Shown here: in pieces, positions 3,229-32,814 of the stretch | Layout: every line of letters begins with the position of its first letter | Position numbering within the stretch: position 1 is the first letter of the stretch | NCBI GenBank assembly: GCA_029860045.1 | Contig: JAOUBY010000003.1 | Location: 65 to 64,064, forward strand | Reading direction: 5' to 3' | DNA: 64,000 bases | From: Gammaproteobacteria bacterium | GTDB lineage: Bacteria > Pseudomonadota > Gammaproteobacteria > UBA9214 | Translations under genes and position numbers: made by a program | Notes under the pieces: generated by a model | The model's input: only the letters and a program-made list of their open reading frames with translations | The model's database searches: none | What the model was told of the DNA's origin: nothing

Positions 3229-3688
3229 GCTCGTTCCTCCGTCAGTGGTCCCTGGAAAGTACAGGATGTGGCCTTTTGGACTATAACCGCAAATATAATG
3301 CCAGATTGTTATTATTCTTTAAAAAACAGTCACTAGTATAGGGCGGTCAATCTGCAGTAAATATCGATGTTAAATATTCTGACATATGTCCTGCGGCACG
3401 CAAACCCCCTTTTATATGCTGCCTTGAGGATCAGGACGCCACGTACTATAGCTGTTAATACAAACTCTCTGCCTGTTCCCCCGGCAGGCCACGTGTGCAG
3501 GTGCACTGGCGACGGAATATTGACTGCTTCAGCGATAATACGTATCGTCAAATTGATAAAAGGAGTTATATTAATTAATAATAATTAACTTATACACGGA
3601 AGGTAACAGGATGAACGGCCGACACGCTTATTATCTTACTTTGATGACCCGGAGATCCGGGCGGTATCAGCGCAGGTAAAGCAGTCAA

Positions 3689-11516: not shown

Positions 11517-11603
11517 ATTAAAACCTGGCACGACCTGCAGGTGCTGTAACTTGTGTTAAGTACCGGGGGCGTCAATTCTTATAAGGAACAGAAGGGATTC
11601 ATC

Positions 11604-15688: not shown

Positions 15689-15886
15689 ATTCTGCTTACC
15701 GGGGAATGTCGCAATCCAGACTCACAGTATGCGACCATGTGACACTGGTCCTTGTGCCACCGCACGATCACTGTTACAAGATTGCCACGGCAGTTCGAAG
15801 AAATTAACAGGCGGTGTCTGAGGCCCATATTCATTACATGCAATGCCGGTTGCCAGGATCTACTGTCACACAGGAAGCGAGCAATA

Positions 15887-16729
15887 ATGAGTTACAAGCT
15901 GATCAAGGACCGGTACTTCGCCACCCTCGGCTGGACCAACCGGGAAAACGCCAGCGATGCCAAGGTGGCCTTCATGAACGACGTCGACATGACGTCGGCC
16001 ATCCGGCTGCGAGAGAAATACACGGACCTGAAACCGTCCTATACTGCCCTGCTGGCACGGGCCATCGCCCTGGCGATACGGGAACATCCCAAGGCCAACC
16101 GGATGGTGCTGGCATTGCCGTTCTACAAGCGGATCGTGCAGTTCGACGCGATCAATATCACCATCGCCATCGAGCAGCAGCAGAAAGATGCAAGCAAGGA
16201 CACGGTACTCGCCGACACGGTATACCATGTCGATCAGAAGTCACTGTCCGACATCATGGTCCAGCTGCACGAGATGGCCCGGGCGACACCCGAAAACAAT
16301 CCGCGTCAGCGTCAGCTGGCCTTCATTGTGGAGAAGCTGCCCAACTGGCTGGCCCTGCTGCTGATCAGCATTCCGCGCTGGTTCCCGGGCATGTGGGTGC
16401 AGCACCGGGGCGGCTCCGTGCTGATCTCCTCGCCCTGCAAATACGGTGTCGAGCGGCTGGTCGCGAACTGGAGCTGGCCGATCGGCTTTTCCTTCGGCCT
16501 GCTGAGAAAACAGCCCGTGGTGGTGGCTGACGAAGTCGTTGTCCGGCCCGTCATGAGCGTGACCATGAGCTTCGACCGCCGGGTGCTGCTGGGGGCGCCC
16601 GCCGCCAGGTTCTTCAAGCGGGTCTGCGACCTGCTGGAGAATGCGGAGGAAACGCTGGATATGGATAGCCCTGCAACGCCCGCGATGCAGGAAGGCCGCA
16701 ACGCGGCGGCGAGGGAAGATGTGGCATAA
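15887..16729 (+). CDS. 2-oxoacid dehydrogenase E2 catalytic-domain-like (CAT-fold) protein with substituted catalytic His
   Basis: Start at ATG 15887 (AGGAAG RBS). The C-terminal SFDRRVLLGAPAARFFKRV aligns to the E2/CAT motif sFDHRviDGaxaarF with His->Arg and Asp->Leu changes; length of about 280 aa fits a stand-alone catalytic domain. Confidence 0.5.
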   Translation: MSYKLIKDRYFATLGWTNRENASDAKVAFMNDVDMTSAIRLREKYTDLKPSYTALLARAIALAIREHPKANRMVLALPFYKRIVQFDAINITIAIEQQQKDASKDTVLADTVYHVDQKSLSDIMVQLHEMARATPENNPRQRQLAFIVEKLPNWLALLLISIPRWFPGMWVQHRGGSVLISSPCKYGVERLVANWSWPIGFSFGLLRKQPVVVADEVVVRPVMSVTMSFDRRVLLGAPAARFFKRVCDLLENAEETLDMDSPATPAMQEGRNAAAREDVA

Positions 16730-18977: not shown

Positions 18978-20261
18978 TTACGCCTTCAGGGTGGTGGTCC
19001 GGCGGCGGCGGACGCCGTTCAGGCCCATGAGACCCATGCCCATGCCCAGCAGGGCGATCGTACCCGGCTCCGGAACCCGCGTGATGCGGAAGGCCTGGTT
19101 GGCATCGGTCTGGAAGATGACATCTTCGCCAGTTAATGGCAAGAAGCACTCCTCCACAGTTCCGCCAGCAACTAGGCAATCATTGAAAGCCTGATTGGTG
19201 GCAGGATCGCCACCATTAAGAAAGTCCTGGGCGGTGAGCACTGTGCCATCAGTCAGAACGATGGTGTCCAGGTCGGCGAAGGTAATTTCCCCTTCCTGCA
19301 GGCAGACCAGGTCGGCACTGCTTGCGCCCGCCGTGTTGTCATAGCAGAACGACGGATTGGTCTCGTTGAAGGGAATCACGTTCTCGGTGCTGAACGTCGT
19401 ATCAAAGAATATCGAAGCAAGCAGATCCTTGAAGAAGGCAAAATCCTGGAAGGCCACTTCCGCCTCGAGGTCGGTGGCGCCCTCACCAGTCACGGTGAAA
19501 GTGATGTCACCGGCCGCTGGCTCGCCTGCCCAGTTGTCGACGCCAAAGGAGTCCAGCAGGGCTGGGTCTAAGATCTGATCGCCGGTGGTGAACAACCCGT
19601 TCCCGTCCAAGTCGACAAAGGTGTACTGAGTGCTCGTAAAATTACCCGAGATATCACCCAGCTGCGAGGAGCTCATGATCAACTGCCCATCGTCAAAGCC
19701 GGTTCCACTCAGGATGTCGGACTTTTGACCTGAGGCATCCCCCAGGTCGTCGTAGTAGAGCTCGAAGAAGATATCCTCCGAAGCGAGGGAGAACGTCTGA
19801 GTGCCTCCAATTTCATATATATCGTTACCGCTACCATCCGTCCCAATAAGAGTGCTGCTGAATGAGGCATCCGTAACCAATTCTGTGCCACCGAAGACAT
19901 AGGTCCATTCCCACAAATTGTTGATGCCAAGGGGGCTACTCGGGTTGCCACCTGCATCGGCATAGCCCTGCAATGCGGCTTGGCTATAGACTTCGAAGCT
20001 GCAATTGGTACCATTCAGGGTGGGGCCAGAAGCACCACAATCACCGCCGCTTGTAATAAAGTCTTCACCGGCCGTCATGGAACCTATCGTCAGGCTGGAC
20101 CCCACCGCCCAGTCAAGGGAGCCGACCTCTTCGTTACCAGTCAGACCGTCGCTACCGGTGAAGTCGATCGTGACTGTATCGGTGGGTTCACCTAACGCCA
20201 GCGCGGAGGTGCTCGCGAGGGCCATTGATACTCCCACGGCCACAAAGGAAATTTTATTCAT
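18978..20261 (-). CDS. PEP-CTERM domain protein (exosortase substrate), secreted
   Basis: Signal peptide MNKISFVAVGVSMALASTSALA. The C-terminus RVPEPGTIALLGMGMGLMGLNGVRRRR is a textbook PEP-CTERM signal (VPEP, TM helix, Arg cluster). AAGGAG RBS. Confidence 0.9.
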   Translation of the reverse strand: MNKISFVAVGVSMALASTSALALGEPTDTVTIDFTGSDGLTGNEEVGSLDWAVGSSLTIGSMTAGEDFITSGGDCGASGPTLNGTNCSFEVYSQAALQGYADAGGNPSSPLGINNLWEWTYVFGGTELVTDASFSSTLIGTDGSGNDIYEIGGTQTFSLASEDIFFELYYDDLGDASGQKSDILSGTGFDDGQLIMSSSQLGDISGNFTSTQYTFVDLDGNGLFTTGDQILDPALLDSFGVDNWAGEPAAGDITFTVTGEGATDLEAEVAFQDFAFFKDLLASIFFDTTFSTENVIPFNETNPSFCYDNTAGASSADLVCLQEGEITFADLDTIVLTDGTVLTAQDFLNGGDPATNQAFNDCLVAGGTVEECFLPLTGEDVIFQTDANQAFRITRVPEPGTIALLGMGMGLMGLNGVRRRRTTTLKA

Positions 20262-20340: not shown

Positions 20341-20357
20341 AAGCACGACTCGTGCCA
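20341..20357 (-). promoter_or_regulatory. sigma54 (RpoN) -24/-12 promoter for the PEP-CTERM protein gene
   Basis: Minus-strand TGGCACGagtcGTGCTT: 7/7 match to TGGCACG, canonical GG-N10-GC spacing, -12 GTGCT vs TTGCW. About 85-100 nt upstream of the ATG at 20261; a sigma54 activator (prsR) is encoded in the locus. Confidence 0.6.
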
Positions 20358-21041
20358 GCCTTGTAAATAGCAATAAAAACAGGTGGATGTAAACCGGTAT
20401 CCGGACTGCACAGTATGCTAAGGACGGTAGTTGTAAATAATCATGACAGATGTGCCTGTGAAACGCTTCGCAGGCTACACCACAGGGAATCATCCAGGTG
20501 TCGTTGTCACCAGCCGCTACCGAAAACAGCAGATCTGGTGATCGATCATGTCTGATTGGAAACAGGGATATTACATAACTATCAGAAAATAAAGGGAATT
20601 ACATGGTTTGCCGAGGCTGGTTGCAGCAGGAGACCGAAGAGTGTCGCTCCTCACGACGCCTTCGGAGTGTATAAAAAATTGACATAATCGAGGGAGGTCG
20701 GCCATGCCGCATGGGGTCACAGGGAGTTACCGCAGCGTATTTTGCTTTAGAGCCCGTATATTGTCTCCCCCCCCTCTCTCTCCCCTGGCCGTTACCCGAA
20801 GCCACAGGCTAAAGCCGGTGGAGTATTCACATAAATCAAAGTCGGGAGTCCCGGTTGGCTTCCAGCCAGCTTGCCAGGCTGGAAATTATTCGGTACGTTG
20901 CCGTACGGGGCAGTGCCGCTGTTCGTGTCGTGGGCGGAAGCGCGGCTGTAATCAATATTGACGATTTTCCGCCGCCGGGGCGTCATGCCACCATCGCGGC
21001 CGCATCCGGGCGAACCGCAGAGAGAGGAGGGACCTCAGCGC

Positions 21042-21755
21042 ATGAATCGCACCCCGGGCCGTGAGTATTTCCTCTTCGATACGCTGTTCAACCTGGTAGA
21101 ACTCGGCCTCTATGCCCTGAGCCTCGCGGGGCCGGTGGCACTGCTCTGGGAACTGCGGGGGGCGGGCTTGCCGTGGCTGGTGCTGCTGGCCGTACTCCTG
21201 TGGCCGTTGGCGGGTGTTGTTTTCGGCGCCCTGCTGGTGATTCTTGCGCGGGCGCTGGTCTGGCGATGGCCCCGCGGACGGATGCTGCTGACCAGCCGCC
21301 GGGCCATCGCCTGGTTCGTGCTCGACCGGTTCATGAAGATGATGTATCGGAGCCCGTTTCGCGTGCTACTGGAGGCGAACAACCTGCTGCGCCTGCTGTT
21401 CTACCGGGGCATGGGTGCTGGGCTGGACTGGACCTTCATGGCAGGTCAGGGCGTCAAACTCACCGAACCCTGGCTGGTCAGGCTGGGGCGTAATGTGCTT
21501 TTGGGCGATGGTGCCCACCTTGCCGCCCACAAGGTCGAGGGCAATGTCGTGACGCTGGATGAAATCGAGATCGGTGATGGCACGGTCATTGGCGCCGGGG
21601 CCATTATCTTTCCCGGATGCCGTATAGGCAACAACGTGACGGTGGGCGCCAGGTCGACGGTGAGTCGGGGGACGGTGATACCGGATGGAGAAACCTGGGT
21701 CGGCATCCCGGCGCGGAAACTCGACTACTTCTCTCGTTCTAAATCGCAGGGGTAG
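21042..21755 (+). CDS. Membrane-anchored hexapeptide-repeat (left-handed beta-helix) acyl/acetyltransferase
   Basis: N-terminal hydrophobic helices (LAGPVALLWEL...LVLLAVLLWPLAGVVFGALLVILA) and C-terminal LbH repeats (LGDGAHLAAH...IGDGTVIGAGAIIFPGCRIGNNVTVGARSTV). Start chosen at ATG 21042 with a GGAGGGA RBS; the track start 20958 is a TTG. Confidence 0.7.
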   Translation: MNRTPGREYFLFDTLFNLVELGLYALSLAGPVALLWELRGAGLPWLVLLAVLLWPLAGVVFGALLVILARALVWRWPRGRMLLTSRRAIAWFVLDRFMKMMYRSPFRVLLEANNLLRLLFYRGMGAGLDWTFMAGQGVKLTEPWLVRLGRNVLLGDGAHLAAHKVEGNVVTLDEIEIGDGTVIGAGAIIFPGCRIGNNVTVGARSTVSRGTVIPDGETWVGIPARKLDYFSRSKSQG

Positions 21756-22015
21756 GGTATTCATATTGATCCACCTGACCTTCTGTAACCTGCCGTACCC
21801 TGGTGTCAGGATGAGTATTGCCCTGTCGTCTATCTTCTATACTATCTACCTGTTTGATTGCGTTGATTGTGTGGGCTGCAAGCTGTTTAATAATTCGTTT
21901 TGACGGATGCGGTTCTGTCGGGTGTCATGGTTAGGATGTCGTTCATTGTGAATCTCCTCACGGTATTACCTCCAGTCTGCAAACAACCGGCTCCACTGAT
22001 TTCAGCGCCGCGTCA

Positions 22016-23239
22016 ATGTCAATGATTGTTCTGGCGCTGCGCAATCTGTTTCGGCATTGGAAACGGACGGCCATTGCCCTGGCCGCCATTGGTTTTGGCG
22101 TGATTGCCCTGTTGCTTGCAGGCGGGTTCATCGATTGGATCTTCTGGGGTATGCGGGAGGGGGCTATCCAGTCACGCCTCGGCCATATACAGATCACCCG
22201 CCCCGGCTATTTTGAAACTGGAAGTGCGGATCCTTTTGCGTACCTGCTACCCGATCAGCTAAACGAAGAGGAAATTATCGGGTTGCGGCCCGAGATTCGA
22301 GTAATTACACCACGCTTGGCATTCAACGGCCTGATCAGCCATGGCGATGTCACGATTGGATTTTCCGGCGAAGGTGTGGATCCCGAAAAAGAGGCATCCG
22401 TCAGTCAGCATTTAATCATCACAAAGGGTGAGAACCTTGGCCCGGATGATCCGACAGGCCTGTTGCTGGGTGCCGGGTTGGCTGACAACCTTGGTGTAAC
22501 CGTGGGGGATAGTGTGGTCCTGCTGGCGAATACGGCATCCGGCGGGTTAAGTGGTGTTGAAGGGCCGGTGCGTGGCTTGTTCCAGAGTGCATCGAAGGCA
22601 TTTGATGACGCCGCGTTGCGGGTGCCGGTTGATACTGCCAGAAGCCTGTTGCGGGTCTCCAGTGCCCATAGCTGGGTACTGTTACTGGATGAAACCGAAA
22701 AAACAGATGAGGTTCTGCTGTATCTGCAGGAACGCTTCCCGGTATCGGAAAGCGGTTTGCAGTTCACTCCCTGGTACGCACTGGCCGATTTCTATAACAA
22801 GACAGTTGCCTTGCTCTCCCGGCAAATGAGCGTGGTCCAGCTGATCATCGCCCTCATTATTGTACTCAGTATCTCCAATACCCTGGTGATGAGCGTGCTT
22901 GAAAGAACCGGCGAGACGGGGACGTTGATGGCCATCGGAGTCAGGCGTCGAAGAATATTGCATATGTTTGTTACTGAAGGTCTGTTATTGGGAGTGATAG
23001 GTGGTTTGGGTGGGGTTGCCGTGGGAGGCTTGTTGGCCATGGTCATATCAGCTGTCGGCATCCCGATGCCACCCCCGCCCGGTATGGATGTGGGCTTTAG
23101 CGGGAAGATCCTGCTTAGTTGGCCACTGATTGCCGGAGTGATGGCGCTTGCCATTGGAACAACATTATTGGCGAGCCTCTACCCGGCCTGGAAGGCTTCG
23201 CGCCTGGAGATTGTAAATGCGTTGCGCCATAACCGATAA
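22016..23239 (+). CDS. ABC transporter permease, FtsX/LolC/LolE (MacB-type) family
   Basis: MSMIVLALRNLFRHWKRTAIALAAIGFGVIALLLAGGF N-terminal TM, a large periplasmic domain and three C-terminal TM helices: LolC/E topology. Confidence 0.85.
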   Translation: MSMIVLALRNLFRHWKRTAIALAAIGFGVIALLLAGGFIDWIFWGMREGAIQSRLGHIQITRPGYFETGSADPFAYLLPDQLNEEEIIGLRPEIRVITPRLAFNGLISHGDVTIGFSGEGVDPEKEASVSQHLIITKGENLGPDDPTGLLLGAGLADNLGVTVGDSVVLLANTASGGLSGVEGPVRGLFQSASKAFDDAALRVPVDTARSLLRVSSAHSWVLLLDETEKTDEVLLYLQERFPVSESGLQFTPWYALADFYNKTVALLSRQMSVVQLIIALIIVLSISNTLVMSVLERTGETGTLMAIGVRRRRILHMFVTEGLLLGVIGGLGGVAVGGLLAMVISAVGIPMPPPPGMDVGFSGKILLSWPLIAGVMALAIGTTLLASLYPAWKASRLEIVNALRHNR

Positions 23240-23298
23240 ATCTAACTACGGGACGACATTATGATTTCAGTCCATATTATGAGTGTCAGTTAATTACC

Positions 23299-24510
23299 AT
23301 GTTTCTGCTGGCATTCCGCAGTATTTTCCGTCACAAGGTAAGAACCGGTTTGACCCTTGCCGCTATTATCTTCGGTGTGGGCAGCCTGGTTCTCATCGGC
23401 GGTTTTGTTGAGGACATTTTTATTCAGTTGCAAGAGGCAACAGTTCATTCGCAGCTCGGCCACATTCAGGTCTATCGTTCAGGTTATACAAAGCTGGGGC
23501 GACGCAACCCTTACGGGTATCTGATTGATAAGCCGGAGCAGATATTGGAGTCTGCCGCTGATTTACCCCAGGTGTCAGATCAACTCCTGCGGGTGAAATT
23601 CGCAGGTCTGGCGAATAATGGTCGTGCGGACCTGCCAGTGATAGGGGAAGCTGTCCAGCCTGACAAGGAGGCGCGACTCGGAAGCGCGATGACTATCACC
23701 AGTGGCAGGCAGCTTACCGGTAATGACCCCCACGGTATTCTTGTCGGTCAGGGGGTGGCGGATGCCTTGCAACTCGAGCCGGGTGATTATCTTACCTTGC
23801 TTGTCAACACAACCGACGGTGTACTTAATAGTCATGAGTTCGAGGTGATTGGTATATTCCGGACTTTTGCCCGTGATTATGACAACCGTGCTGTTCGCAT
23901 TTCACTGGTTTCCGGACAGGACCTGATTGGGACCAGTGGAGTGCACAGCGTCGTGCTGTCACTTGACACCACTGAAGCCACGGACTCTGTGGCAAGGGCC
24001 CTGCAACAACAACTCACCCCGCAGGACTATGAAGTAAGAACATGGTATGAGCTTTCCGATTTTTACGGCAAGACAGTTAATCTTTACCGCAGGCAATTTA
24101 CCGTCCTGCAGCTCATCATCCTGTTGATGGTCCTGTTAACCGTGGCAAACAGCGTGAACATGGCGATCTACGAGCGTATCGGGGAATTTGGCACCCTGAA
24201 GGCCCTGGGCGACAGGCAGCGGGATATCTTCCGGCAGGTCATGAAGGAAAATATGCTGCTGGGTCTGCTTGGTGCGGGTTTGGGAGTGGCTATCGGTGTC
24301 GCACTGGCATGGGCGATATCCGGGGTCGGGATAGACATGCCGCCACCGCCGAATTCCGATGTGGGTTATACCGCCTACATTCGCCTGGTTCCCGGGGTGA
24401 TTGCTATGGCCTTCGGGGTTGGCGTTATTGCGACGGTGTGTGCTGCACTGTTACCCGCCTGGCGTGTCTCGCGACTGCCCGTGGCCGAGGCCTTGCGGGA
24501 GAATGTGTGA
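23299..24510 (+). CDS. Second FtsX/LolC/LolE-type ABC permease (tandem paralog)
   Basis: Same architecture as the previous gene (MFLLAFRSIFRHKVRTGLTLAAIIFGVGSLVLIGGF...). Confidence 0.85.
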   Translation: MFLLAFRSIFRHKVRTGLTLAAIIFGVGSLVLIGGFVEDIFIQLQEATVHSQLGHIQVYRSGYTKLGRRNPYGYLIDKPEQILESAADLPQVSDQLLRVKFAGLANNGRADLPVIGEAVQPDKEARLGSAMTITSGRQLTGNDPHGILVGQGVADALQLEPGDYLTLLVNTTDGVLNSHEFEVIGIFRTFARDYDNRAVRISLVSGQDLIGTSGVHSVVLSLDTTEATDSVARALQQQLTPQDYEVRTWYELSDFYGKTVNLYRRQFTVLQLIILLMVLLTVANSVNMAIYERIGEFGTLKALGDRQRDIFRQVMKENMLLGLLGAGLGVAIGVALAWAISGVGIDMPPPPNSDVGYTAYIRLVPGVIAMAFGVGVIATVCAALLPAWRVSRLPVAEALRENV

Positions 24511-24523
24511 GGTCCGAAGGGCG

Positions 24524-25378
24524 CTATCTCGCTAGTTTTTTCAGATAATTCTTGGTAAAGGTCTTGTCCGGCAGCTTGCGCAAGCGCATGCCGCTGTAGT
24601 CCATGACGGAACGGCCTTCCTTGTGCAGGGCATCTTCCATAATGAGTTGGGTCGGACGTATCGTGTTGCCAAAATTCTGGTAGGCCCGGAAGTGGCAGGT
24701 TTTTATCAGCCGGTTGGACAGGGTAAAAAACTCAGCCTTGAAGGGTCTGTAATTGGCCTGATTGACCCAGTAAAGCACGCGGTGGTATGTCACACCTCTG
24801 CGCGACGCCTTCAGTTCGAGTAAGTAATAGTTTTCTTTTCCGATAGTCTCGGTACGCAGCAGGGTGGGTTCATAGTCGCCGGTAAAGTTGGCACGCGCGA
24901 GGTCGCCATTGGCCACTTCGCCGGTGAGCTTTTGTGACAGGGGCAGGCGTACCGGCTGGGACAGGTTGGGGAGGAATGCCCACAGGTCATGATCGCGCAT
25001 GAGTAGAATGGTGCCCTTGTCGATGGCGGGCGCCGTGGTCATCAACAGGGTTCTGTCATTGCCTTTGGACAGTACCCGGTATTGCTTGACCTCGGGGTCG
25101 CGATCGGGCCCGGTGGTGGTGACCTTGATATCGACCTGGAACCCTTCTGCGGGGAAGCGGATCCGGTCCGCCTTTTCCACGATCTGTTGCGGGGTGAACT
25201 TTGCTGCTTTGGCCGCAAATACATGTGATGTCTGCCCGGATAAATTCCAGCACAATACAATTAACACGGCGGCTGCAATCCGCCCGTATCCTGGTAAAGA
25301 GCCTGGCTTGCCAGGCGTAGAGTGTGATTTTCCTGTCACTGTGGGTATCCGTAAAATGGTCAGGCTTGTGTTGCGCAA
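24524..25378 (-). CDS. LolA-like periplasmic outer-membrane lipoprotein-sorting/carrier family protein; start uncertain
   Basis: Signal segment IAAAVLIVLCWNLSGQTSHVFA and a soluble beta-rich domain resembling LolA-like lipoprotein-sorting proteins that commonly sit beside FtsX permease pairs. Convergent with the permease genes. Confidence 0.6.
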   Translation of the reverse strand: MRNTSLTILRIPTVTGKSHSTPGKPGSLPGYGRIAAAVLIVLCWNLSGQTSHVFAAKAAKFTPQQIVEKADRIRFPAEGFQVDIKVTTTGPDRDPEVKQYRVLSKGNDRTLLMTTAPAIDKGTILLMRDHDLWAFLPNLSQPVRLPLSQKLTGEVANGDLARANFTGDYEPTLLRTETIGKENYYLLELKASRRGVTYHRVLYWVNQANYRPFKAEFFTLSNRLIKTCHFRAYQNFGNTIRPTQLIMEDALHKEGRSVMDYSGMRLRKLPDKTFTKNYLKKLAR

Positions 25379-25804
25379 TAGTATACCTATAGTCCTTTCT
25401 GCCAGAATAAAGTTTCACGCAGAAAGCTGTTCCATTACGACCATCAGAAGACCGACATAATTTTGACCACACCGGAACGCGCTGTGGCCAAGAGAACCGG
25501 TATCCCTTCCTGCGGCTTTTATTGCTTGGTTGTGCGTGTCCCATTGCGCGGCACGGATATTTTATTAGCTTGAAGTTACAGCTGCCCGGGATGGGTATTC
25601 GCCTGCTGGCGTGAAGGTTGGGGTAATATAGCTTCCGGTGTGAATACGGGCATATTTTCATCCATTACACATCTGTTCCGGATGCCAATTATGTGTATTA
25701 TGCTGGACCTCACAGTTACATCTTCCCAAACAGGTTTTAATCAACACAAGTTATTTCAGTATGCATACTGCAGGTGAATCTATCAGTGCATTCAAAGGGC
25801 GACG

Positions 25805-26485
25805 ATGCTGAGTGACTTCCTGGTAAGTGTTAAGAAGGTCTCCAAGGAATATGCCTTCGGCAAACAGAAAGTACAGGCGCTCAGGGAGGTCTCCCTGGCC
25901 GTGCTCGGTGGCGAGTTTCTGGCGATTGCAGGGCCCTCCGGCAGCGGTAAGTCGACCCTTCTGAATCTGATCGGCTGTATTGATACGCCAACAACCGGCT
26001 CTATTTCTATAGAGAATCAGGAAACCGTTAACCAGACGCCCGACCAGTTGGCAGACCTGCGTGCCCGAAAAATCGGCTTCATATTCCAGACGTTCAATCT
26101 GTTACCGGTACTTTCCGCGTTTGAAAACGTGGAATACCCGCTGCTTCGCCTTAAACTGGACAAGACAGAACGGCATCAGCGCGTGTCTCAATATCTTGAA
26201 CTCGTCGGGGTGAACGAGTTTGCAACACACCGGCCTAACCAGCTAAGTGGCGGTCAGCGACAGAGAGTCGCCATAGCCAGGGCATTGATTGCCCAACCCA
26301 GTATTGTCCTGGCCGACGAACCAACGGCCAACCTCGATCACAGGACGGGCGAGGGTATCCTCGACCTGATGTCGCGTATCAACCGGGACAATGGCACGAC
26401 CTTTATCTTTTCCACACATGACGCCCGGGTGATCGAGATGGCCGGCCGGGTGGTCAGGCTAAGCGATGGTGAAATTGTTCAGTAA
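25805..26485 (+). CDS. ABC transporter ATP-binding protein (LolD/MacB-type ATPase)
   Basis: Walker A GPSGSGKST, ABC signature LSGGQRQRVAIARAL, Walker B ILLADEPT; 226 aa. Confidence 0.9.
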   Translation: MLSDFLVSVKKVSKEYAFGKQKVQALREVSLAVLGGEFLAIAGPSGSGKSTLLNLIGCIDTPTTGSISIENQETVNQTPDQLADLRARKIGFIFQTFNLLPVLSAFENVEYPLLRLKLDKTERHQRVSQYLELVGVNEFATHRPNQLSGGQRQRVAIARALIAQPSIVLADEPTANLDHRTGEGILDLMSRINRDNGTTFIFSTHDARVIEMAGRVVRLSDGEIVQ

Positions 26486-26599
26486 TATTGTGCAGATGTC
26501 AGGAGATTGCTTCGTCGCTTTGCTCCTCGCAATGACCGGAATAACCGGGAGCCTGTAACGGATAGCTGCATCCGCATGCGCGGCCTTTGAATTACTGCT

Positions 26600-28579
26600 T
26601 CATTCCTGCCAAAGCAGTTTTTCGAACGGTTTTCTGATAGAGCGCGCTGTCGGGTCGCGACCCGCGCCGATTCTGCCCATGAAGACGGCGTGTTCAACCT
26701 TTTCCGGTAATACCAGTTGTGCAAGCCGGTCGGCCAGTTTCCCTGCCAGTTCCTGACTGTGTTTATTTTCCGAAAACGCCACATTATCCCGTGTGTAGCC
26801 ACTGAATATCAGCGGTGTCATTTCCGGCTGGAGTTTCAGGCCATGCAGGGTGGCCGTCAGCCAGAAACGTTGCACGGCGCGGCCGGCTGCTACAAAGTCA
26901 TCCAGGGTTTCCGCTGGGCGGGATGCCATGATTATAAAATGTGACGCGCATGCGATTCCGGGAATGAAGTCCAGTTCCACGCGCGGAATGAGTGTTCCGC
27001 CCATGAAGCGATTGAGGAAGTCCACGCGCCGCCAGCTGACCATGGCCCAGCGCATCAGCTGCAAGGTCATGGGATCCAGCCCTACCGCCCTGGCGGGAAC
27101 CCGGTCTTCACTGTGCCTGGAATCCCACTGGATGATGGACCTGTGTGTTTCAAAGGCTTCAGGAAGGGTAAGGCGCAGGCCACCATTCTGGAATAGCAGT
27201 CGCGCCATACGCAAACGGTCGCGGAAATCATTGAACCATACAATGCGATATTCACTGCCAACGGCCGTCTCCAGCTGTTCTCGAACGCTGGCAGTAACCG
27301 GCCGGGTTGATAGCGGCCGCCGTTGTACAGTGCGCTCGCTGATAAAGGGCAGCAAGGGATCTTTCTGGATATTCGGGTCAGCAAGGAATGCGACATCGAA
27401 GGTCGGACTGGTCGCAGGCAGTCCCGGGCGTGCCCGGAACTCGGCGTACAGGCCATGGTGACTGGCCGCGATGCTGATGGTTTCAAGCAGCGTGCCCAGT
27501 GCGAGCTGGCTGGCATGGCCCCTCAGGTCGTAGACGCAGTGCTCGCGCGTATCGTGGCCGTGAATAACCGCATGGTGCGGGTCGATAATTTCAAACCGCC
27601 ACGGCTGGCTGTTGTCTCCGCTGGGGGCCCAGCGGGCATGATCCAGTATTTGCCGGGCCACGCTGTTACTGGCTCCGGCTGCTTTGCCCCCGTCAGGGGG
27701 CGGGGCAGATGTTAATTTCTGGCTGAATCTGCGTCTTGCCAGCATGAGGCCAAGTTGTTGCAGCGGGTTTCGATTCCCTCCCGGGCGCCAGGTTGTAACC
27801 AGTTGGTTACGGTAGGCGTCGAAATGAAGGCCGTGTGGTGCGGCAATGACCTTGCCGCGTCCAAGCAGTATTTTCAGTGCCTGGGTGGCCGCAATGCCGG
27901 AGCACAGCTCGCAGGCCATTGGAGTTGATGGCCCCCGGTGTTCGGCAAGCCTGACTGCTGTCGGGTCAACCAGGTAGCGACCCTGCAGCATGGCAGGAGA
28001 AAGGCCGAGCAGGAACCGCAGCAACTGTTCTTCCTCGTCATGGCCATCAAGTTGAAAGTATTCCTCGAACGTCATGCTGCCGGGCAGAAAATTCAATAAC
28101 GCGGCGCCCATGCCAAGCGGTGCAGCGGTAACCGCCGGAACACCCAGCCGGCTGCAGGAATCGAACGCAGCACGTCGTGCCTCAAGGGCAAAAAAATCCA
28201 GACCGTCGATGTACAGGTCAATACCCGTCAGAAAATCATCTGCATTGCCCTGATCAATCCCGTCGGGGAATATTCTCAGGTCAAGCTCCGGGTTGATGTC
28301 CAGCGCACGTTCTGCAAGGGCATCGGTCTTCTTTCTTTCGAGGGTGGAGAGGGCGGCTCCTGCCTGGCGGTTGAAATTCGCGATCTCGAAGGAGTCGAAG
28401 TCAGCCAGTGTGAAGGCGCCGATCCCGAGACGTGTCAGGGTCAGCAGGTGACTGCCCCCGACGCCGCCGAGTCCTGCAATGGCGACACGTTTGGTGCGCA
28501 GTGTGGCTTGCTCTGATGATGTGACCCAGCCGATGTTGCGTGAGAATGCGGCTGTATAGTCGAATTGGCCTGTCGACAT
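26600..28579 (-). CDS. Fusion protein: N-terminal ThiF/MoeB E1-like adenylyltransferase domain plus C-terminal nitroreductase-superfamily (SagB/McbC-like) domain
   Basis: N-terminus RVAIAGLGGVGGSHLLTLTRLGIGAFTLADFDSFEIANFNRQ (E1 Rossmann GxGxxG plus NxxRQ). C-terminal half ARQILDHARWAPSGDNSQPWRF is nitroreductase signature. ATG at 28579 preferred over the TTG at 28600. Confidence 0.8.
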   Translation of the reverse strand: MSTGQFDYTAAFSRNIGWVTSSEQATLRTKRVAIAGLGGVGGSHLLTLTRLGIGAFTLADFDSFEIANFNRQAGAALSTLERKKTDALAERALDINPELDLRIFPDGIDQGNADDFLTGIDLYIDGLDFFALEARRAAFDSCSRLGVPAVTAAPLGMGAALLNFLPGSMTFEEYFQLDGHDEEEQLLRFLLGLSPAMLQGRYLVDPTAVRLAEHRGPSTPMACELCSGIAATQALKILLGRGKVIAAPHGLHFDAYRNQLVTTWRPGGNRNPLQQLGLMLARRRFSQKLTSAPPPDGGKAAGASNSVARQILDHARWAPSGDNSQPWRFEIIDPHHAVIHGHDTREHCVYDLRGHASQLALGTLLETISIAASHHGLYAEFRARPGLPATSPTFDVAFLADPNIQKDPLLPFISERTVQRRPLSTRPVTASVREQLETAVGSEYRIVWFNDFRDRLRMARLLFQNGGLRLTLPEAFETHRSIIQWDSRHSEDRVPARAVGLDPMTLQLMRWAMVSWRRVDFLNRFMGGTLIPRVELDFIPGIACASHFIIMASRPAETLDDFVAAGRAVQRFWLTATLHGLKLQPEMTPLIFSGYTRDNVAFSENKHSQELAGKLADRLAQLVLPEKVEHAVFMGRIGAGRDPTARSIRKPFEKLLWQE

Positions 28580-28848
28580 TAACCTGTTTCCGGGTTGCAA
28601 ATACCAATTTACGACATTGAATTCAGCATGGAAGCAGTTGCTGATCGATTCTGGCGCCCGACATGATTTCTACCAGGCAAAGTTCTGTGGCGCTAATAGT
28701 ATGTTGTGTCAGGTGGTGTGTCTAATGCTATTAAGAGGACTGACCTGGCGACGTCCTTCTGGCGTGACCATGCATTGACCTGTTTAATCGATGCCGGCTT
28801 TTCATGCCTGACCTGAAAGGCGGTTTCAGATGCCGGTATAACGTCAAT

Positions 28849-28864
28849 TGTGACGCTTGTCACA
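28849..28864. promoter_or_regulatory. Perfect CRP/FNR-type palindrome TGTGA-N6-TCACA in a divergent intergenic region
   Basis: TGTGACGCTTGTCACA: both half-sites match the CRP core exactly with 6-nt spacing. It lies between the E1-nitroreductase gene (minus) and acyltransferase gene 1 (plus), about 190 nt from the latter. Confidence 0.45.
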
Positions 28865-29055
28865 GATTAAGGGAGCGCAAGGCAGCTCAGTTGTGGTGTT
28901 GTTCTCAATACAATCAATGTCCTGCCGATAGGATGTTTATTGTTATCCAAGGTTCGCATGTGATGTGTTTGGGTGAGTTCATGGAGAACCTGAGCCTGCC
29001 GACTGAGATGTTCCGGTTACCATCCATAGTGAGTCGTCGTTGAAGAGACGAAAAT

Positions 29056-29829
29056 ATGAGTGATTTGTGTGATTTATTTTTTCAGTACTTTGATGTCATT
29101 CTGGACGATCAGCCGGGTGTTATAGACGAAGCCACCAGACTTCGCTACCAGGTGTATTGCATAGAAAATGATTTTGAGGATGCGTCCCGGTTTGATGATG
29201 ACAGGGAAGTGGATGAGTATGACCGGCGTTCTGTTCACAGTGTTGTCAGGCACAGGAAGCTGGGAGTAACCGCAGCCTCTGTCAGGCTGGTCCTGTCAGA
29301 CCAGGAATGTCCTGAAGCGCTTTTCCCGATCGAGGAGAACTGTGCTGCATCCCTAAAGGCCTGTCCTTCAATCTTTCGTGGTATCCCGCGCAATGCCATA
29401 GCTGAAATATCACGCTTTGCCGTTTCCAAGGATTTCAAGCGCCGGCATGGCGAGGCCGGCAACCCTGCCGGTGTCGGTCCAGACCCGGACCGGTATCTAA
29501 CGCCTGATTTAAACAGGCGGAGAGTCATTCCCCACCTGATCCTGGGTTTATTTGCCGCGATAGTAAAAATGAGTGCAGAGCATCATGTTACCCACTGGTA
29601 TGCCGTGATGGATGTTTCTCTGCTGCGCCTGTTGACCCGCTTTGGTATCAACTTCATGCCCATGGGAGGGCAGGTGGATTACCATGGATTGCGGCAACCC
29701 TGCTTTGGCAGTGTGGACGAGGTGCTGGCCGGGATATGGGAGAAACGCCCGGATATCTGGCGCTTGATCACTGCTGACGGGGTCGTATGGCCAGCCCCGG
29801 CAGATCATGCCGTGAGTGCCGGTGGATAG
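29056..29829 (+). CDS. GNAT-fold N-acyl amino acid synthase/autoinducer-synthase-like acyltransferase (PEP-CTERM/exosortase-associated acyltransferase family), copy 1
   Basis: 257 aa; the RLRYQVYCIENDFED N-terminal block and overall length match FeeM/NasY-type N-acyl amino acid synthases and the exosortase-associated acyltransferase family (TIGR03694-like, from memory). Confidence 0.7.
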   Translation: MSDLCDLFFQYFDVILDDQPGVIDEATRLRYQVYCIENDFEDASRFDDDREVDEYDRRSVHSVVRHRKLGVTAASVRLVLSDQECPEALFPIEENCAASLKACPSIFRGIPRNAIAEISRFAVSKDFKRRHGEAGNPAGVGPDPDRYLTPDLNRRRVIPHLILGLFAAIVKMSAEHHVTHWYAVMDVSLLRLLTRFGINFMPMGGQVDYHGLRQPCFGSVDEVLAGIWEKRPDIWRLITADGVVWPAPADHAVSAGG

Positions 29830-30096
29830 TGTTGGGTGGTAGAACGCTGCGGGTGATTTGATCGATTCGCTTTACCGGTTAGCCAACATAGTCTTCAATC
29901 TGTCCCTCCGGCTTTCCTGTCGCTAGCTAGTGACATTGAAATACCAATAAAAACAGATAGGTATATAAATTATATTAAATGCTGTCGTCACCCGGCGACA
30001 GTTCTGCCGAGCAGAGTGTTGTATTGCCCCGGTTTTACCCTGTGGGCTACCCCATTGATTTTTTAACTCACTGTAATTACTGATTAATAGTGTCTC

Positions 30097-30112
30097 TGGC
30101 ACGATTATCGCA
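30097..30112 (+). promoter_or_regulatory. sigma54 (RpoN) -24/-12 promoter for acyltransferase copy 2
   Basis: TGGCACGattaTCGCA: 7/7 -24 element, canonical GG-N10-GC spacing, -12 TCGCA vs TTGCW. About 100 nt upstream of the ATG at 30215. Confidence 0.6.
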
Positions 30113-30214
30113 TTTCCCATGCGTAATTTAGCTTCATGACATGGAAACAGGCCACTGGGCCGCCGTGTCCATGAGCGAACCGCAAACTACTTTTCCCGGG
30201 TTGATGACAAGCAC

Positions 30215-30970
30215 ATGAGCGAACTCTATAACACGTTTCATAGCCATTTCGACGTGGTCTCGGCGGATACCGTCGGCCTGATGGAGACGGCCTTCAGGAT
30301 GCGTTACCAGGTCTATTGCCTGGAGAGGTCATACGAAGATGCAGAGTCCTTTCCGGACCAAATGGAGATTGACGAGTTCGATATGCACTCGGCCCACAGC
30401 CTGGTGAGGTGCCAGCGATCCGGGCAGTATGCTGGCCTGGTCAGGCTGGTCCTGCCAAATCCGGTAGATATGGACAAGCCGTTACCACTGGAGAAATTCT
30501 GCCACTCTGCCATGCAGAAAGCGGGTATTGATTTATCTTCCATTCCCCGGGACCGCATGGCTGAAATCTCGAGATTTTCGATTTCAAAGGAACTAAAGCG
30601 TCAGTGTGCGCAGAAGTCTGCTGTTTCAGCCACCGGTGATGTTGTTGATGGCGTGGATACCCGGATGACGCCACAAATAGTACTCGGTCTGTTTGCGGGG
30701 GTCGTTCGAATGAGTGCCCAGAACAATATTACTCACTGGTTGGCTGTTATGGAGCCAACCTTGCTCAGGTTCCTTTCACGCTATGGCATCTACTTCCAGA
30801 AGATCGGGCCGGTGATTGACTATCATGGCCGGCGGCAACCGACGGTTGCGAGCATCGATTCAGTATTGTCAGGGATTTATGCCCATCGTAAGGATGTCTG
30901 GGAAGTGATTACTGATTTTGGAAATGTCTGGCCGTTGGATAAGGAAGTCAAACATTTTGCAATGCCGTAG
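30215..30970 (+). CDS. GNAT-fold N-acyl amino acid synthase-like acyltransferase, copy 2 (tandem paralog)
   Basis: 251 aa; alignable to copy 1 throughout (FRMRYQVYCLERSYEDAESFPD...MAEISRFSISKELKR...THWLAVMEPTLLRFLSRYGI). Confidence 0.7.
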   Translation: MSELYNTFHSHFDVVSADTVGLMETAFRMRYQVYCLERSYEDAESFPDQMEIDEFDMHSAHSLVRCQRSGQYAGLVRLVLPNPVDMDKPLPLEKFCHSAMQKAGIDLSSIPRDRMAEISRFSISKELKRQCAQKSAVSATGDVVDGVDTRMTPQIVLGLFAGVVRMSAQNNITHWLAVMEPTLLRFLSRYGIYFQKIGPVIDYHGRRQPTVASIDSVLSGIYAHRKDVWEVITDFGNVWPLDKEVKHFAMP

Positions 30971-31107
30971 CTGGCTACCAGCTCGGCATCCATGCCTTCC
31001 GCGACACTTGCACATCCATGTTATCGCCCATGTAGTCGTCGCAATGACAGGTGAATCAGGGCTTCCTTAGGTAGTATTCCGAGACGGGGGCTCGTGCCTG
31101 CGTCTGC

Positions 31108-32814
31108 TCAGAACGTATAGCGCACGTTGCCATAGACCCTGTCGCTGTCATCGAAACGTCCAAACAGACCGGACGAATTTCCGCCAAATATATCGGCGCC
31201 GACTGCCAGCCACCAGTTATCCGACATCTCCCAGGTCACCTTGGGTCTCGCCATCCAGTCGCTGCGATTCAGGCCGGTTACCAGCAGCAGTTCCGCATCT
31301 ACCCGGTTGGCAATTTCCTTGCTGACGTACAGGCTGACACCGGTTTCCAGTTCATCGAAGAGAATGTCCGAGTCGTGGTCCGTATACCAGCGCTGGAATA
31401 GCTGAACATTCAGCAATGTGCCATTGGTATATGAGTGTTCGAGGCCTACTACATAATCGAGTGTGTCCTGTTGTGTTGCGCCATCCGGGTCGAGAGGGTT
31501 GTCTACAGTAAACCAGCGATCACGTGTATAGACAGCCTCGCCCTTCAGCAGGATGTTGCCAAAATCCTTTGCCACGGTGGCGCCAAGCTGGTGAATCCTG
31601 TCATGCCTGGGAGTGATGGTGAGTCGTGTGGTCATGCCTGTCTCAAGGGTGCTGAAAAACGCGGGAGAGGCATCCATGCTGCGGTAATAAAAGCCGGATA
31701 CATCCCAGCCGTGTTTCAGCATGGAAAGCCGCAGGCCAAATGCGCTGTTGGACAGCTTTTGTGACGGTTTAACATCCCCCTCGATAACCAGTTCATCCAC
31801 ACCGGGTGGTAGTTCTGTGCCCAGGGGGTAGAAATCGTCACCAGGCTTGCCGATCTCGTCATAGGTCATGTAGGGGATCCAGATGGCCTCGGTGTGAAAG
31901 TCCCCCTTGAAGTATTCTGCGCGCGCTGCCCATTGCGGGATACGTATGAGGTCAAAATCCTCTGCGACCAACTGGCGCATATCCTTTGCCGAAACGACAT
32001 CGGCAAAGAACAGTCCAACCATCTCGCCCCAGATAATGTGCTGTCTGCCCAGGCGAAACTCCAGGTCACCTGCCGAGATATCCAGGTAGGTCTCGTGTAG
32101 CGCGCCTTCAAGGCGCCGGTTGTCTTCAACACGGTCAGAATAGAAATTATCCAGGTCAAAGACTGCGTCGTAACTGCCGCGGGCGCTGACCTTCCAGGAA
32201 ACATTCTGGTTGATGCGGTCGCTGGCCTGTAGTTCCAGCGTGTTGCGGAACATCGAGGGGTGGGTAGGTGACGAATAGGTGTGGGCGTATTTTGAGTTGA
32301 AAAATCCCCGGAAATTGTATTTGTCGGTCCCTGCCTTGTCGTTGCTTGCCTGGCTCTCATCCGGGGCCGAGAGGAACAGGTCATCAATGCCGGCAGGCTC
32401 ACCTGGCCCGTCCTCTGCCCTGGCGCTACCGGTGTCCTGTCTCGTGGACGCATTGCTGCTGGCCTCGGCTAGCAATACAGGGGTGCCTGACGATGGGCTG
32501 GTCACAAGAAAACCGGGGATGTCCATGGCATCGAGCCGTTTGTGCATATATTCTGCAGTTGCCCGTTCCGGGTAGGGCCCAACCCGGACGCGGGTCAGCG
32601 ATCTTGAGCCTTTATCATTAATAATGGTGGTTGCGGGGAAACCCTGCTGCTCCAGTTTTTCCACAAACTGGGTGGCCTGGCCCTGGTCCCTGAAGGCGCC
32701 AACCTGGACGGTGTAATCGGCGCGGGAGATGATCTGGAACTGCATCATGCCGAGAGTTGCGAGGGCTGTGATGATCCAGTGTCGGGTTCGATTTAGTCGT
32801 GTCGATTTATTCAT
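31108..32814 (-). CDS. Outer-membrane beta-barrel protein with N-terminal SPOR (peptidoglycan-binding) domain
   Basis: After the signal peptide, YTVQVGAFRDQGQATQFVEKLEQQGFPATT...RVRVGPYPERATAE is a SPOR domain. It is followed by about 400 aa with alternating amphipathic strands ending in the C-terminal Phe motif ...NVRYTF typical of OM barrels. Confidence 0.7.
   Translation of the reverse strand: MNKSTRLNRTRHWIITALATLGMMQFQIISRADYTVQVGAFRDQGQATQFVEKLEQQGFPATTIINDKGSRSLTRVRVGPYPERATAEYMHKRLDAMDIPGFLVTSPSSGTPVLLAEASSNASTRQDTGSARAEDGPGEPAGIDDLFLSAPDESQASNDKAGTDKYNFRGFFNSKYAHTYSSPTHPSMFRNTLELQASDRINQNVSWKVSARGSYDAVFDLDNFYSDRVEDNRRLEGALHETYLDISAGDLEFRLGRQHIIWGEMVGLFFADVVSAKDMRQLVAEDFDLIRIPQWAARAEYFKGDFHTEAIWIPYMTYDEIGKPGDDFYPLGTELPPGVDELVIEGDVKPSQKLSNSAFGLRLSMLKHGWDVSGFYYRSMDASPAFFSTLETGMTTRLTITPRHDRIHQLGATVAKDFGNILLKGEAVYTRDRWFTVDNPLDPDGATQQDTLDYVVGLEHSYTNGTLLNVQLFQRWYTDHDSDILFDELETGVSLYVSKEIANRVDAELLLVTGLNRSDWMARPKVTWEMSDNWWLAVGADIFGGNSSGLFGRFDDSDRVYGNVRYTF

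Follow-up and report, generated by a model that had tools for sequence, protein, structure and literature searches.

The window analyzed here is a 64,000-nt stretch of DNA from a gammaproteobacterium of the GTDB lineage UBA9214 (assembly GCA_029860045.1, contig JAOUBY010000003.1, positions 65 to 64,064 of the forward strand), and our subject is a gene set at 21042-30970 that combines acyltransferases, a ThiF-nitroreductase fusion enzyme, and a transporter cassette of Lol-like architecture. The surroundings of this set are filled by a complete XrtA/PEP-CTERM slime-and-floc locus, for which all of the families listed here scored above their cut-offs in profile searches. Genes encoding EpsB_2, PrsK, PrsR, two PrsT paralogs, and a PepA-like PEP-CTERM protein lie on the 5' side, and XrtA-type extracellular polysaccharide (EPS) export, chain-length, tyrosine-kinase, outer-membrane, ATPase, deacetylase, FemAB, and glycosyltransferase genes follow from 33354 onward. 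XrtA itself is fused to EpsI (43927-45513). A first-pass annotation had placed eight genes in this exosortase context, and the open reading frame (ORF) map together with profile hidden Markov model (HMM) searches of each protein recovered all eight at the same coordinates and with the same domains.

The same annotation described the set as an insert inside the exosortase locus. This term is a misnomer because the GC content of the set (0.52-0.58) equals that of its flanks and the set is conserved, in rearranged gene order, in Methylocaldum, Nitrosospira, Methyloversatilis, and other XrtA loci; a recent insertion or horizontal island is ruled out for these reasons. The proposed boundaries were also too narrow. 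The module is wider than 21042-30970, as it includes a DUF1302 barrel gene just past that end (31108-32748) and a family 1 glycosyltransferase (GT1) gene at 14399-15688. Two genes between the glycosyltransferase (GT) and the hexapeptide-repeat acyltransferase (HexAT), at 15752-16729 and 16996-18792, were considered as members and left out, since each has one homolog among 80 related loci. The features of the module are as follows.

14399-15688, plus strand: GT1-family glycosyltransferase (MGT/UDPGT/EryCIII-like), matching NCBIfam TIGR04516 and TIGR01426
21042-21755 (ORF from 20958), plus strand: membrane-anchored hexapeptide-repeat (left-handed beta-helix) acyltransferase, HexAT; Pfam Hexapep, E 1.7e-9
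22016-23239, plus strand: FtsX/MacB_PCD permease A, LolC/E-like, four transmembrane (TM) segments; 110.8 bits on the lolCE model
23299-24510, plus strand: FtsX/MacB_PCD permease B, four TM segments; 90.6 bits on the lolCE model
24524-25267 (ORF to 25378), minus strand: periplasmic LolA_like carrier with signal peptide; PF17131, E 3.5e-47
25805-26485, plus strand: ABC ATPase, type VII (LolD/DevA/MacB-like), below family cut-offs
26600-28579 (ORF to 28600), minus strand: ThiF-nitroreductase fusion, putative OxzB-type oxazolone synthetase; ThiF, E 1e-37; nitroreductase/Acg-type domain
29056-29829, plus strand: TIGR03694 acyltransferase, copy 1 (oxzA1); 255 bits on TIGR03694; Acetyltransf_5 and FeeM domains
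30097-30112, plus strand: sigma54-type -24/-12 promoter-like site, TGGCACGATTATCGCA, one mismatch, GG/GC kept
30215-30970, plus strand: TIGR03694 acyltransferase, copy 2 (oxzA2); 268 bits on TIGR03694; FeeM and Autoind_synth domains
31108-32748, minus strand: SPOR-DUF1302 outer-membrane protein with signal peptide, peptidoglycan-binding SPOR domain, linker, and predicted beta-barrel

The fusion enzyme contains a ThiF domain at residues 20-278 and a Nitroreductase domain from residue 316, with the Acg-type FMN oxidoreductase model matching over 318-596, and it scores 438 bits on PRK08223 (above the cut-off) and 385 bits on PRK14851. G43, G45, G46, and G48 (GxGGxG), D67, N77-R78-Q79, K91, D132, and D135 do not vary among 21 aligned homologs. 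These residues align to the nucleotide site of TcdA and ThiF, the adenylation motif being intact, and the cyclodehydratase TcdA is the nearest solved ThiF-fold structure. At least 1774 homologs exist, the best 120 of which are 57-76% identical. Full-length identity reaches 52% with OxzB of a Rheinheimera pacifica strain (L051; the labels L001-L108 denote related loci and contigs), which matches the same NCBIfam profile, and identity to OxzB of a Pseudoalteromonas species (P. ardens) is 46%. As judged from these domains and motifs, the fusion enzyme is a ThiF-like adenylating cyclodehydratase joined to a nitroreductase-fold flavin oxidase of the OxzB type. We also observed that the ThiF and nitroreductase halves are encoded by separate adjacent genes in three related loci (L085 2551-4622, L100 2970-4928, and L108 4686-6838); the OxzB fusion would therefore have split or formed more than once, unless the split genes represent assembly frameshifts.

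The first-pass annotation regarded the chemistry of these genes as undescribed. However, the acyltransferase/E1-nitroreductase pair corresponds to OxzA/OxzB, which has been reconstituted in vitro (bioRxiv 10.1101/2020.06.11.147165; PMC12856293). In E. coli, N-acyl oxazolones (tyrazolones and phenazolones) were made by the oxzA-oxzB pairs of Pseudoalteromonas rubra, Rheinheimera pacifica, Colwellia chukchiensis, Skermanella aerolata, and Undibacterium pigrum (de Rond, Asay & Moore, bioRxiv 10.1101/2020.06.11.147165). Purified P. rubra OxzA converts decanoyl-CoA to N-decanoyl-tyrosine, and OxzB produces the oxazolone from it only with ATP (bioRxiv 10.1101/2020.06.11.147165). The window resembles these pairs in that a GNAT-type N-acyl amino acid synthase neighbors a di-domain ThiF-nitroreductase enzyme with conserved ATP-binding/adenylation motifs, and its profile matches are those of the R. 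pacifica pair. In contrast to the characterized pairs, the window has two OxzA paralogs, whose genes diverge from oxzB instead of preceding it on its own strand, and it adds a GT1 enzyme, a hexapeptide acyltransferase, and a complete trans-envelope exporter. The general logic of the first-pass annotation, in which an N-acyltransferase is followed by adenylation and flavin redox chemistry and then by Lol-like extraction of a lipidic product, nevertheless holds.

TrzAS (Rv1356c/Rv1355c) and TyzACB of Mycobacterium tuberculosis perform the same chemistry, and the fused TrzS first cyclizes and then desaturates (PMC12856293). N-acylation, ThiF-type cyclization, and flavin-dependent desaturation (PMC12856293, PMC10404671) would be shared by the window enzymes, and the split genes of L085, L100, and L108 recall the separate TyzB and TyzC. 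On the other hand, the window OxzB belongs to another subfamily, as it matches the Rv1355c family model with E 2e-56 and 191.6 bits, below the cut-off of 476, and the mycobacterial loci possess neither an exosortase system nor a Lol-like exporter.

Both acyltransferases exceed the 112-bit cut-off of TIGR03694, which bears the family name 'PEP-CTERM/exosortase system-associated acyltransferase'. They share 43% identity and lie 455 nt and 1.6 kb from oxzB, which places a GNAT gene beside the cyclase/oxidase gene. On the evidence of profiles and gene neighborhood, TIGR03694 can be equated with the OxzA family. Two classes of acyltransferase occur in related loci, class A being of the TIGR03694 type and class B FeeM-like; acyltransferases were counted with iterated HMMs, as a first tblastn screen gave too few owing to class B. 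The N-terminal part of the 989-residue NCBIfam model PRK14852 matches the class-B acyltransferase and its remainder, from position 313, matches the fusion enzyme, thereby indicating that natural GNAT-ThiF-nitroreductase fusions exist.

The association of the acyltransferase with exosortases is already published and is written into the TIGR03694 name. Craig et al. (2011) linked N-acyl amino acid synthases to exosortases, and in E. coli, TIGR03694-type enzymes on their own yield long-chain N-acyl amino acids; as this work is presented in PMC4897644 and PMC7293339, it concerns the acyltransferase alone and does not extend to the oxazolone step, the tailoring genes, or the exporter. Like the family described there, both window acyltransferases pass the TIGR03694 cut-off and sit in an XrtA locus. 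In Methylomonas LW13, a mutant in an exosortase-type N-acyl amino acid synthase lost a polysaccharide band that was restored by complementation (PMC11072679), a result that fits a role of such products in the matrix by analogy.

In a scan of one genome per GTDB species, at least 543 stretches encode relatives of the fusion enzyme. We analyzed 80 loci centered on OxzB with up to 10 kb on each side, 53 of them with full flanks, using tblastn and iterated HMMs on six-frame ORFs; these loci derive from Gamma-, Beta-, and Alphaproteobacteria, Planctomycetota, and Omnitrophota. Of the 80 loci, 60 contain an acyltransferase (43 of the 53 with full flanks). The nearest one is less than 1 kb from OxzB in 52 of these 60; it lies directly upstream on the same strand in 44 loci and is divergent, as in the window, in 10. 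Among the seven loci without an acyltransferase that were scanned (L016, L017, L023, L055, L063, L070, and L074), the upstream neighbors were unrelated or had no family match. By the loosest criterion, which counts C-terminal PEP-CTERM motif matches, 65 of 80 loci (48 of the 53 with full flanks) have an XrtA-system marker within 10 kb of OxzB, and strict markers occur in 42 of 80. The neighborhood analysis thus bears out the earlier expectation that the set is conserved with exosortase A loci.

The experimentally tested species R. pacifica is part of this pattern. In its locus (L051), oxzA scores 242 bits on TIGR03694, and the neighbors of the oxzAB pair are a PepA-like PEP-CTERM gene, PrsT (508 bits), and two exosortase A-associated genes, for the acyl-CoA ligase TIGR03098 and the decarboxylase TIGR03099; oxzAB of this species is thus a component of an XrtA locus. 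Unlike R. pacifica, P. ardens (L060), which is related to the tested P. rubra, has no XrtA-system marker within 10 kb of oxzAB, and this may explain why the exosortase link went unremarked at the discovery of OxzB.

The permeases of the exporter cassette are 42% identical to each other, and in related loci their genes recur as a pair beside the LolA-like gene. The best NCBIfam model for both is lolCE, yet their scores are far below its cut-off of 362, and among PDB entries LolC (E 6e-20), LolF, and LolE come nearest to permease A, before MacB (1e-9). The ABC ATPase, which is also found in the cassette of related loci, scores 224 bits on the LolD model (cut-off 307.75), 218 on DevA, and 216 on DarD. 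As these scores lie under the equivalog cut-offs, the proteins are not orthologs of LolC, LolE, and LolD by that measure, and it is in architecture and nearest structures that they are Lol-like. The LolA-like carrier (247-aa form) is an ortholog of Nitrosomonas europaea NE2245 (PDB 3BUU, E 2e-84, residues 21-245). Two ORFs that overlap its gene, at 24999-25460 (+) and 25056-25661 (-), have no family match and were taken as spurious. In an AlphaFold model built with 36 homologs (pLDDT 74), the SPOR-DUF1302 protein shows a SPOR fold, a disordered linker, and a large barrel resembling 18-stranded channels, and it probably serves the cassette as its exit through the outer membrane. Among the ORFs scanned in 20958-32814, none encodes an HlyD-type membrane-fusion adaptor or a TolC-type duct, and domain scans of the cassette found the DUF1302 barrel instead of LolB.

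The cassette can be compared with three known types of envelope transport. Like LolCDE-LolA, it combines two distinct 4-TM FtsX permeases that carry periplasmic domains with a separate ATPase and a soluble protein of the LolA superfamily, and, as in LolCDE-LolA-LolB, a membrane-fusion protein is missing. It differs from the Lol pathway in that its carrier is of the PF17131 (NE2245) type rather than LolA proper, a SPOR-DUF1302 barrel stands in place of LolB, and the cargo is probably a small lipid instead of a lipoprotein. Type VII exporters such as MacAB-TolC and DevBCA use the HlyD-type adaptor and TolC-type duct that the window cassette lacks. DUF1302 proteins are also found with LolA-superfamily (DUF1329) proteins and RND pumps in incompletely understood systems for hydrophobic compounds, as in AmeABCD of Castellaniella defragrans (PMC6394551) and PP_0765-0766 of Pseudomonas putida (bioRxiv 10.1101/2020.07.04.188060). 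The window matches these systems in pairing an outer-membrane DUF1302 protein and a periplasmic LolA-superfamily protein with an inner-membrane pump. However, its pump is of the ABC rather than the RND/MMPL type (sister loci of the module do use MMPL/RND), its carrier is PF17131 instead of DUF1329, its DUF1302 protein bears an N-terminal SPOR domain, and the set is tied to biosynthesis rather than to catabolism or tolerance.

Lol-like and oxzAB genes were found to travel together when the search was started from the carrier. The metagenome scan with the LolA-like protein mostly returned contigs too short for context, but OxzB and/or its acyltransferase occurs on seven of the eight contigs of at least 10 kb that encode LolA-like relatives (39-75% identity), namely L084 (Methylocaldum), L085, L091, L097, L099, L100, and L108. 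DUF1302 is present on six of these seven contigs, GT on five, and HexAT on four; both FtsX genes are found on four and one FtsX gene on two more. L086, the eighth contig, is interrupted by IS elements and retains two FtsX genes, PrsT, and, at its end, GT. Starting from OxzB, LolA-like and FtsX genes lie within 10 kb in 10 of the 80 loci, nine of which also contain DUF1302.

An MMPL/RND pump takes the place of the ABC pump in Halioglobus, Marinobacterium, Pelagibius, and Ca. Tenderia. In the first three it adjoins a more distant LolA-like gene; L026, L031, L039, and L079 combine such a pump with a neighboring LolA-like gene, and MMPL directly follows oxzB in L001. MMPL/RND pumps are known for the transport of lipids and small hydrophobic molecules. 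Because the inner-membrane pump is swapped while the LolA-superfamily carrier is mostly kept, the cargo would be a small lipid and not a protein, and we consider this our best argument on the cargo. Two further arrangements were noted in related loci. The cassette ATPase of L003 (18827-19822, -) has an N-terminal FHA/Yop-YscD domain, which hints at phospho-threonine-dependent control of the exporter. In Methylocaldum L084 (126-3143, -), a second, MacAB-like set consisting of an FtsX permease, an ABC ATPase, and an HlyD-type membrane-fusion protein adjoins two oxzA genes, in addition to the Lol-like cassette.

Two enzymes of the module are candidates for tailoring the product. The nearest solved structures to GT1 are CalG1, CalG4, CalG2, OleD, and YjiC, all of which act on small aglycones, and by family and synteny GT1 is probably a tailoring enzyme of the module. 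The 265-aa HexAT ORF has two hydrophobic N-terminal segments (residues 46-105) and matches the Pls/PosA terminal domain and sugar O-acetyltransferases weakly; it is probably an O-acyl or acetyl tailoring enzyme, as its family suggests. GT is located within 10 kb of OxzB in 27 of the 80 loci, often directly downstream in the order oxzA-oxzB-GT-HexAT, and in other genomes it is directly 3' of the fusion enzyme or of the permeases. HexAT homologs follow GT near OxzB in 15 of 80 loci and likewise in L084, L085, L099, and L100. A recurrent operon in related loci reads oxzA-oxzB-GT-HexAT-PrsT.

The first-pass annotation tied the second acyltransferase copy to sigma54, and this claim stands in part. 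The site at 30097-30112 is intergenic and correctly oriented, 103 nt before the copy-2 ATG at 30215, and from the shuffle rate about 0.01 such sites would be expected on the same strand in the 385-nt spacer. However, sigma54-like sites are not enriched in the window, and their presence upstream is not conserved for class A; support for this site therefore consists only of its position and orientation. Upstream of class-B acyltransferase genes such sites are enriched (4/21, p = 4e-4), with at least two of the four loci belonging to the same species (Nitrosospira multiformis) and thus not being independent. A sigma54 link is plausible for the window locus on this evidence and is not established as a general property. 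Two other sigma54-like sites were observed. One of these, TGGCACGAGTCGTGCT at 20342-20357 (-), is intergenic and correctly oriented 81 nt upstream of the PepA-like gene; it fits the published RpoN-dependent pepA promoters, which are documented with the same -24/-12 motifs in Aquincola (PMC9850573). The other, TGGCATTATATTTGCG at 3288-3303 (-), has two mismatches and lies about 60 nt upstream of a 226-aa gene at 2548-3228 (-). Scans for sigma70 promoters and terminators did not rise above shuffles, and an Rfam scan of the whole window gave no match.

A precedent for a module of this kind is from a planctomycete. Stieleria maiorica secretes N-acyl dehydrotyrosines (stieleriacines) that alter biofilm composition, and the putative cluster comprises four N-acyl amino acid synthase genes, a TcdA-like ThiF enzyme, an oxidoreductase, RND pumps, and a PEP-CTERM gene beside EPS genes (PMC7293339). 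These products are formally ring-opened tyrazolones, and the findings fit a matrix role by analogy. The planctomycete cluster differs from the window in having separate enzymes instead of a fusion, RND/CzcA-type pumps with membrane-fusion proteins instead of the ABC/LolA-like/DUF1302 route, and a methyltransferase and desaturase for tailoring instead of GT and HexAT.

Taken together, we think it likely that the region serves to make, tailor, and export an N-acyl oxazolone (azlactone) lipid or the ring-opened N-acyl dehydro-amino acid, and that this module forms a conserved accessory of XrtA/PEP-CTERM floc/EPS systems. From the gene content, the most likely product, destined for the floc matrix, would be an N-acyl oxazolone or dehydro-amino-acid (glyco)lipid. 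As their family membership suggests, OxzA1 and OxzA2 would join a fatty acyl thioester to an amino acid and thereby form N-acyl amino acids; the amino acid is aromatic in all characterized cases. The ThiF domain of OxzB would then adenylate the carboxylate and cyclize the intermediate to the oxazol-5-one, and the flavin domain would desaturate the C-alpha/C-beta bond, steps that are demonstrated for homologs and carried over to the window by homology. Synteny and the small-molecule GT family suggest that GT1 and HexAT may decorate the product, for example by glycosylation of a phenolic OH and subsequent O-acylation of the sugar. Given the architecture and strict synteny of the cassette, the heteromeric LolC/E-like permease pair and ATPase would extract the amphiphile from the inner membrane and hand it to the LolA-like carrier, from which it would reach the SPOR-anchored DUF1302 barrel. 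Expression may be at least partly sigma54-dependent, probably via PrsK/PrsR, as the single site before oxzA2 suggests.

Several observations weigh against this interpretation. Only about one fifth of the OxzB loci have a Lol-like cassette within 10 kb, and in the window GT lies 5 kb away behind three unrelated, non-conserved genes. The window OxzB is only 46-52% identical to the R. pacifica and P. ardens homologs and falls in a neighboring identity cluster, and L051 is another R. pacifica strain record than the one possibly used in the experiments. The product of the locus is predicted from genes alone, the substrates of GT and HexAT are assigned from synteny and family type, and the cargo of the cassette is deduced purely from synteny. 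With respect to regulation, the window contains 5 sigma54-like sites against 3.3 in shuffles, neither sites with up to one mismatch nor those with up to two being more frequent, and class-A acyltransferase genes show no upstream enrichment (2/56).

It is conceivable, although unlikely, that the cassette moves C-terminally lipidated PEP-CTERM proteins to the outer membrane as LolCDE/LolA/LolB does for lipoproteins, the exosortase-cleaved proteins being joined to a lipid or glycolipid possibly made by the module. Such a function would agree with LolC, LolF, and LolE being the closest solved structures to the permeases and with the placement of the carrier in the LolA superfamily; several genomes also position the cassette between PEP-CTERM substrate genes and XrtA-system genes, and mature PEP-CTERM proteins have no established anchor. 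A protein cargo is difficult to reconcile with the replacement of the ABC pump by MMPL/RND pumps in sister lineages and with a DUF1302 model that resembles an 18-stranded channel rather than a LolB-like receptor. The cassette moreover tracks oxzAB, GT, and HexAT instead of xrtA, as most OxzB-bearing XrtA loci lack it within 10 kb, and by chemical reasoning oxazolones and N-acyl dehydro-amino acids offer no free amine to resolve a sortase-type acyl-enzyme. That the cassette and oxzAB are functionally unrelated neighbors, the former being a general envelope or EPS-related exporter, appears very improbable. The cassette proteins do fall under every curated family cut-off and hence carry no assigned function, and DUF1302 and LolA-superfamily partners serve unrelated hydrophobic substrates elsewhere (PMC6394551; bioRxiv 10.1101/2020.07.04.188060). 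However, the co-occurrence on seven of eight LolA-like contigs spans Gamma- and Betaproteobacteria with rearranged gene order, and even L108, whose LolA-like protein is 39% identical, keeps a split OxzB, an acyltransferase, FtsX, and DUF1302 adjoining.

The end products could also be plain N-acyl amino acids acting as surfactants or signals, with the ThiF-nitroreductase acting on another substrate, such as a peptide or protein whose C-terminus it would adenylate in the manner of MccB, ThiF, and MoeB, and with co-location reflecting co-regulation only. The ability of TIGR03694-type enzymes to yield N-acyl amino acids by themselves in E. coli (Craig et al. 2011, as reported in PMC4897644 and PMC7293339) is compatible with this explanation, as are the 20 of 80 OxzB loci that have no acyltransferase within 10 kb, yet many of the latter are truncated contigs. 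We regard it as quite unlikely, since the acyltransferase, where present, is mostly directly upstream of OxzB in the same orientation and under 1 kb away, GNAT-ThiF-nitroreductase fusions exist according to the PRK14852 match pattern, and all tested homologs (OxzB, TrzS, and TyzB/TyzC) act on N-acyl amino acids.

If the module does make and export an oxazolone, a further role can be imagined for it, which we put forward as a long shot. Rather than an inert lipid or a signal, the exported unsaturated oxazolone may be a pre-activated acyl donor that carries bond energy into an ATP-free compartment and grafts N-acyl-dehydro-amino-acid lipid tails onto matrix amines. It would react, spontaneously or with enzymatic aid, with free amines at the cell surface, either of amino sugars exposed by the XrtA-system polysaccharide deacetylase or of PEP-CTERM protein lysines, and such grafting would bind EPS to cells during flocculation. 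The Lol-like/LolA-like/DUF1302 route would in that case shield a water-labile electrophile in transit.

Other genes of the window deserve mention in their own right. Right after GT1, a 325-aa protein (15752-16729, +) consists of the catalytic acyltransferase domain of 2-oxoacid dehydrogenase E2 only (PF00198, 87.6 bits), without a lipoyl domain; its homolog in the same position was found only in Nitrosospira multiformis (L012) among the 80 loci, and it could be a further acyl-tailoring enzyme. A 598-aa secreted protein (16996-18792, -) has a signal peptide, no family match, and no PEP-CTERM tail, and its only homolog among the loci, in Marinobacterium sedimentorum (L026), is likewise beside the module. 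The PrsT paralogs are tandem and full-length (8679-11516 and 11553-14399, +), with approximately 745 bits each on TIGR02917, and most related loci show one. The product of the PepA-like PEP-CTERM gene (18978-20261, -) has the C-terminus VPEPGTIALLGMGMGLMGLNGVRRRR. At the distal end of the XrtA locus, a homolog of YejM/LapC/PbgA-like membrane metalloenzymes (57166-59121, +; E 5e-36, below the cut-off) adjoins an exosortase-associated O-antigen-ligase-like gene.

The core oxazolone chemistry, the link between the acyltransferase and exosortases (since 2011), and the planctomycete precedent are already known. The oxazolone preprint does not mention exosortase, PEP-CTERM, or transporters in its text and calls the biological role unknown (bioRxiv 10.1101/2020.06.11.147165), and the 2025 TrzAS paper, in which the word 'exosortase' is likewise absent, calls the physiological role of oxazolones 'a major unresolved question' (PMC12856293). 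A search for literature joining oxazolone, tyrazolone, OxzB, or ThiF to exosortase returned nothing relevant, the searchable literature being incomplete. Within that coverage, we did not find previous descriptions of oxzAB as a regular component of XrtA loci, the R. pacifica pair included, as our locus comparison suggests, nor of a conserved putative module in which oxzAB is accompanied by a GT of the small-molecule type, a membrane acyltransferase, and either of two lipid exporters, nor of an NE2245-type LolA-like protein, a LolC/E-like ABC subfamily, and a SPOR-DUF1302 channel that appear to serve it specifically.

The present analysis lets two literatures meet, that of the exosortase field, with an 'associated acyltransferase' of unclear purpose, and that of the oxazolone pathway, with its open physiological role. 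Our comparison suggests that most proteobacterial oxzAB pairs sit inside XrtA/PEP-CTERM loci, travel with tailoring enzymes, and have their own envelope-spanning exporter. This placement, together with the tailoring enzymes and a dedicated lipid exporter, argues for a function at the surface or in the matrix during the formation of flocs and biofilms, which is central to activated sludge and environmental aggregates. The NE2245-type LolA-like protein, the LolC/E-like ABC subfamily, and the SPOR-DUF1302 channel appear to be dedicated to the oxzAB module, and a likely class of cargo can thereby be offered for these orphans, including NE2245 itself (PDB 3BUU). With candidate genes named, the question of oxazolone function becomes testable.

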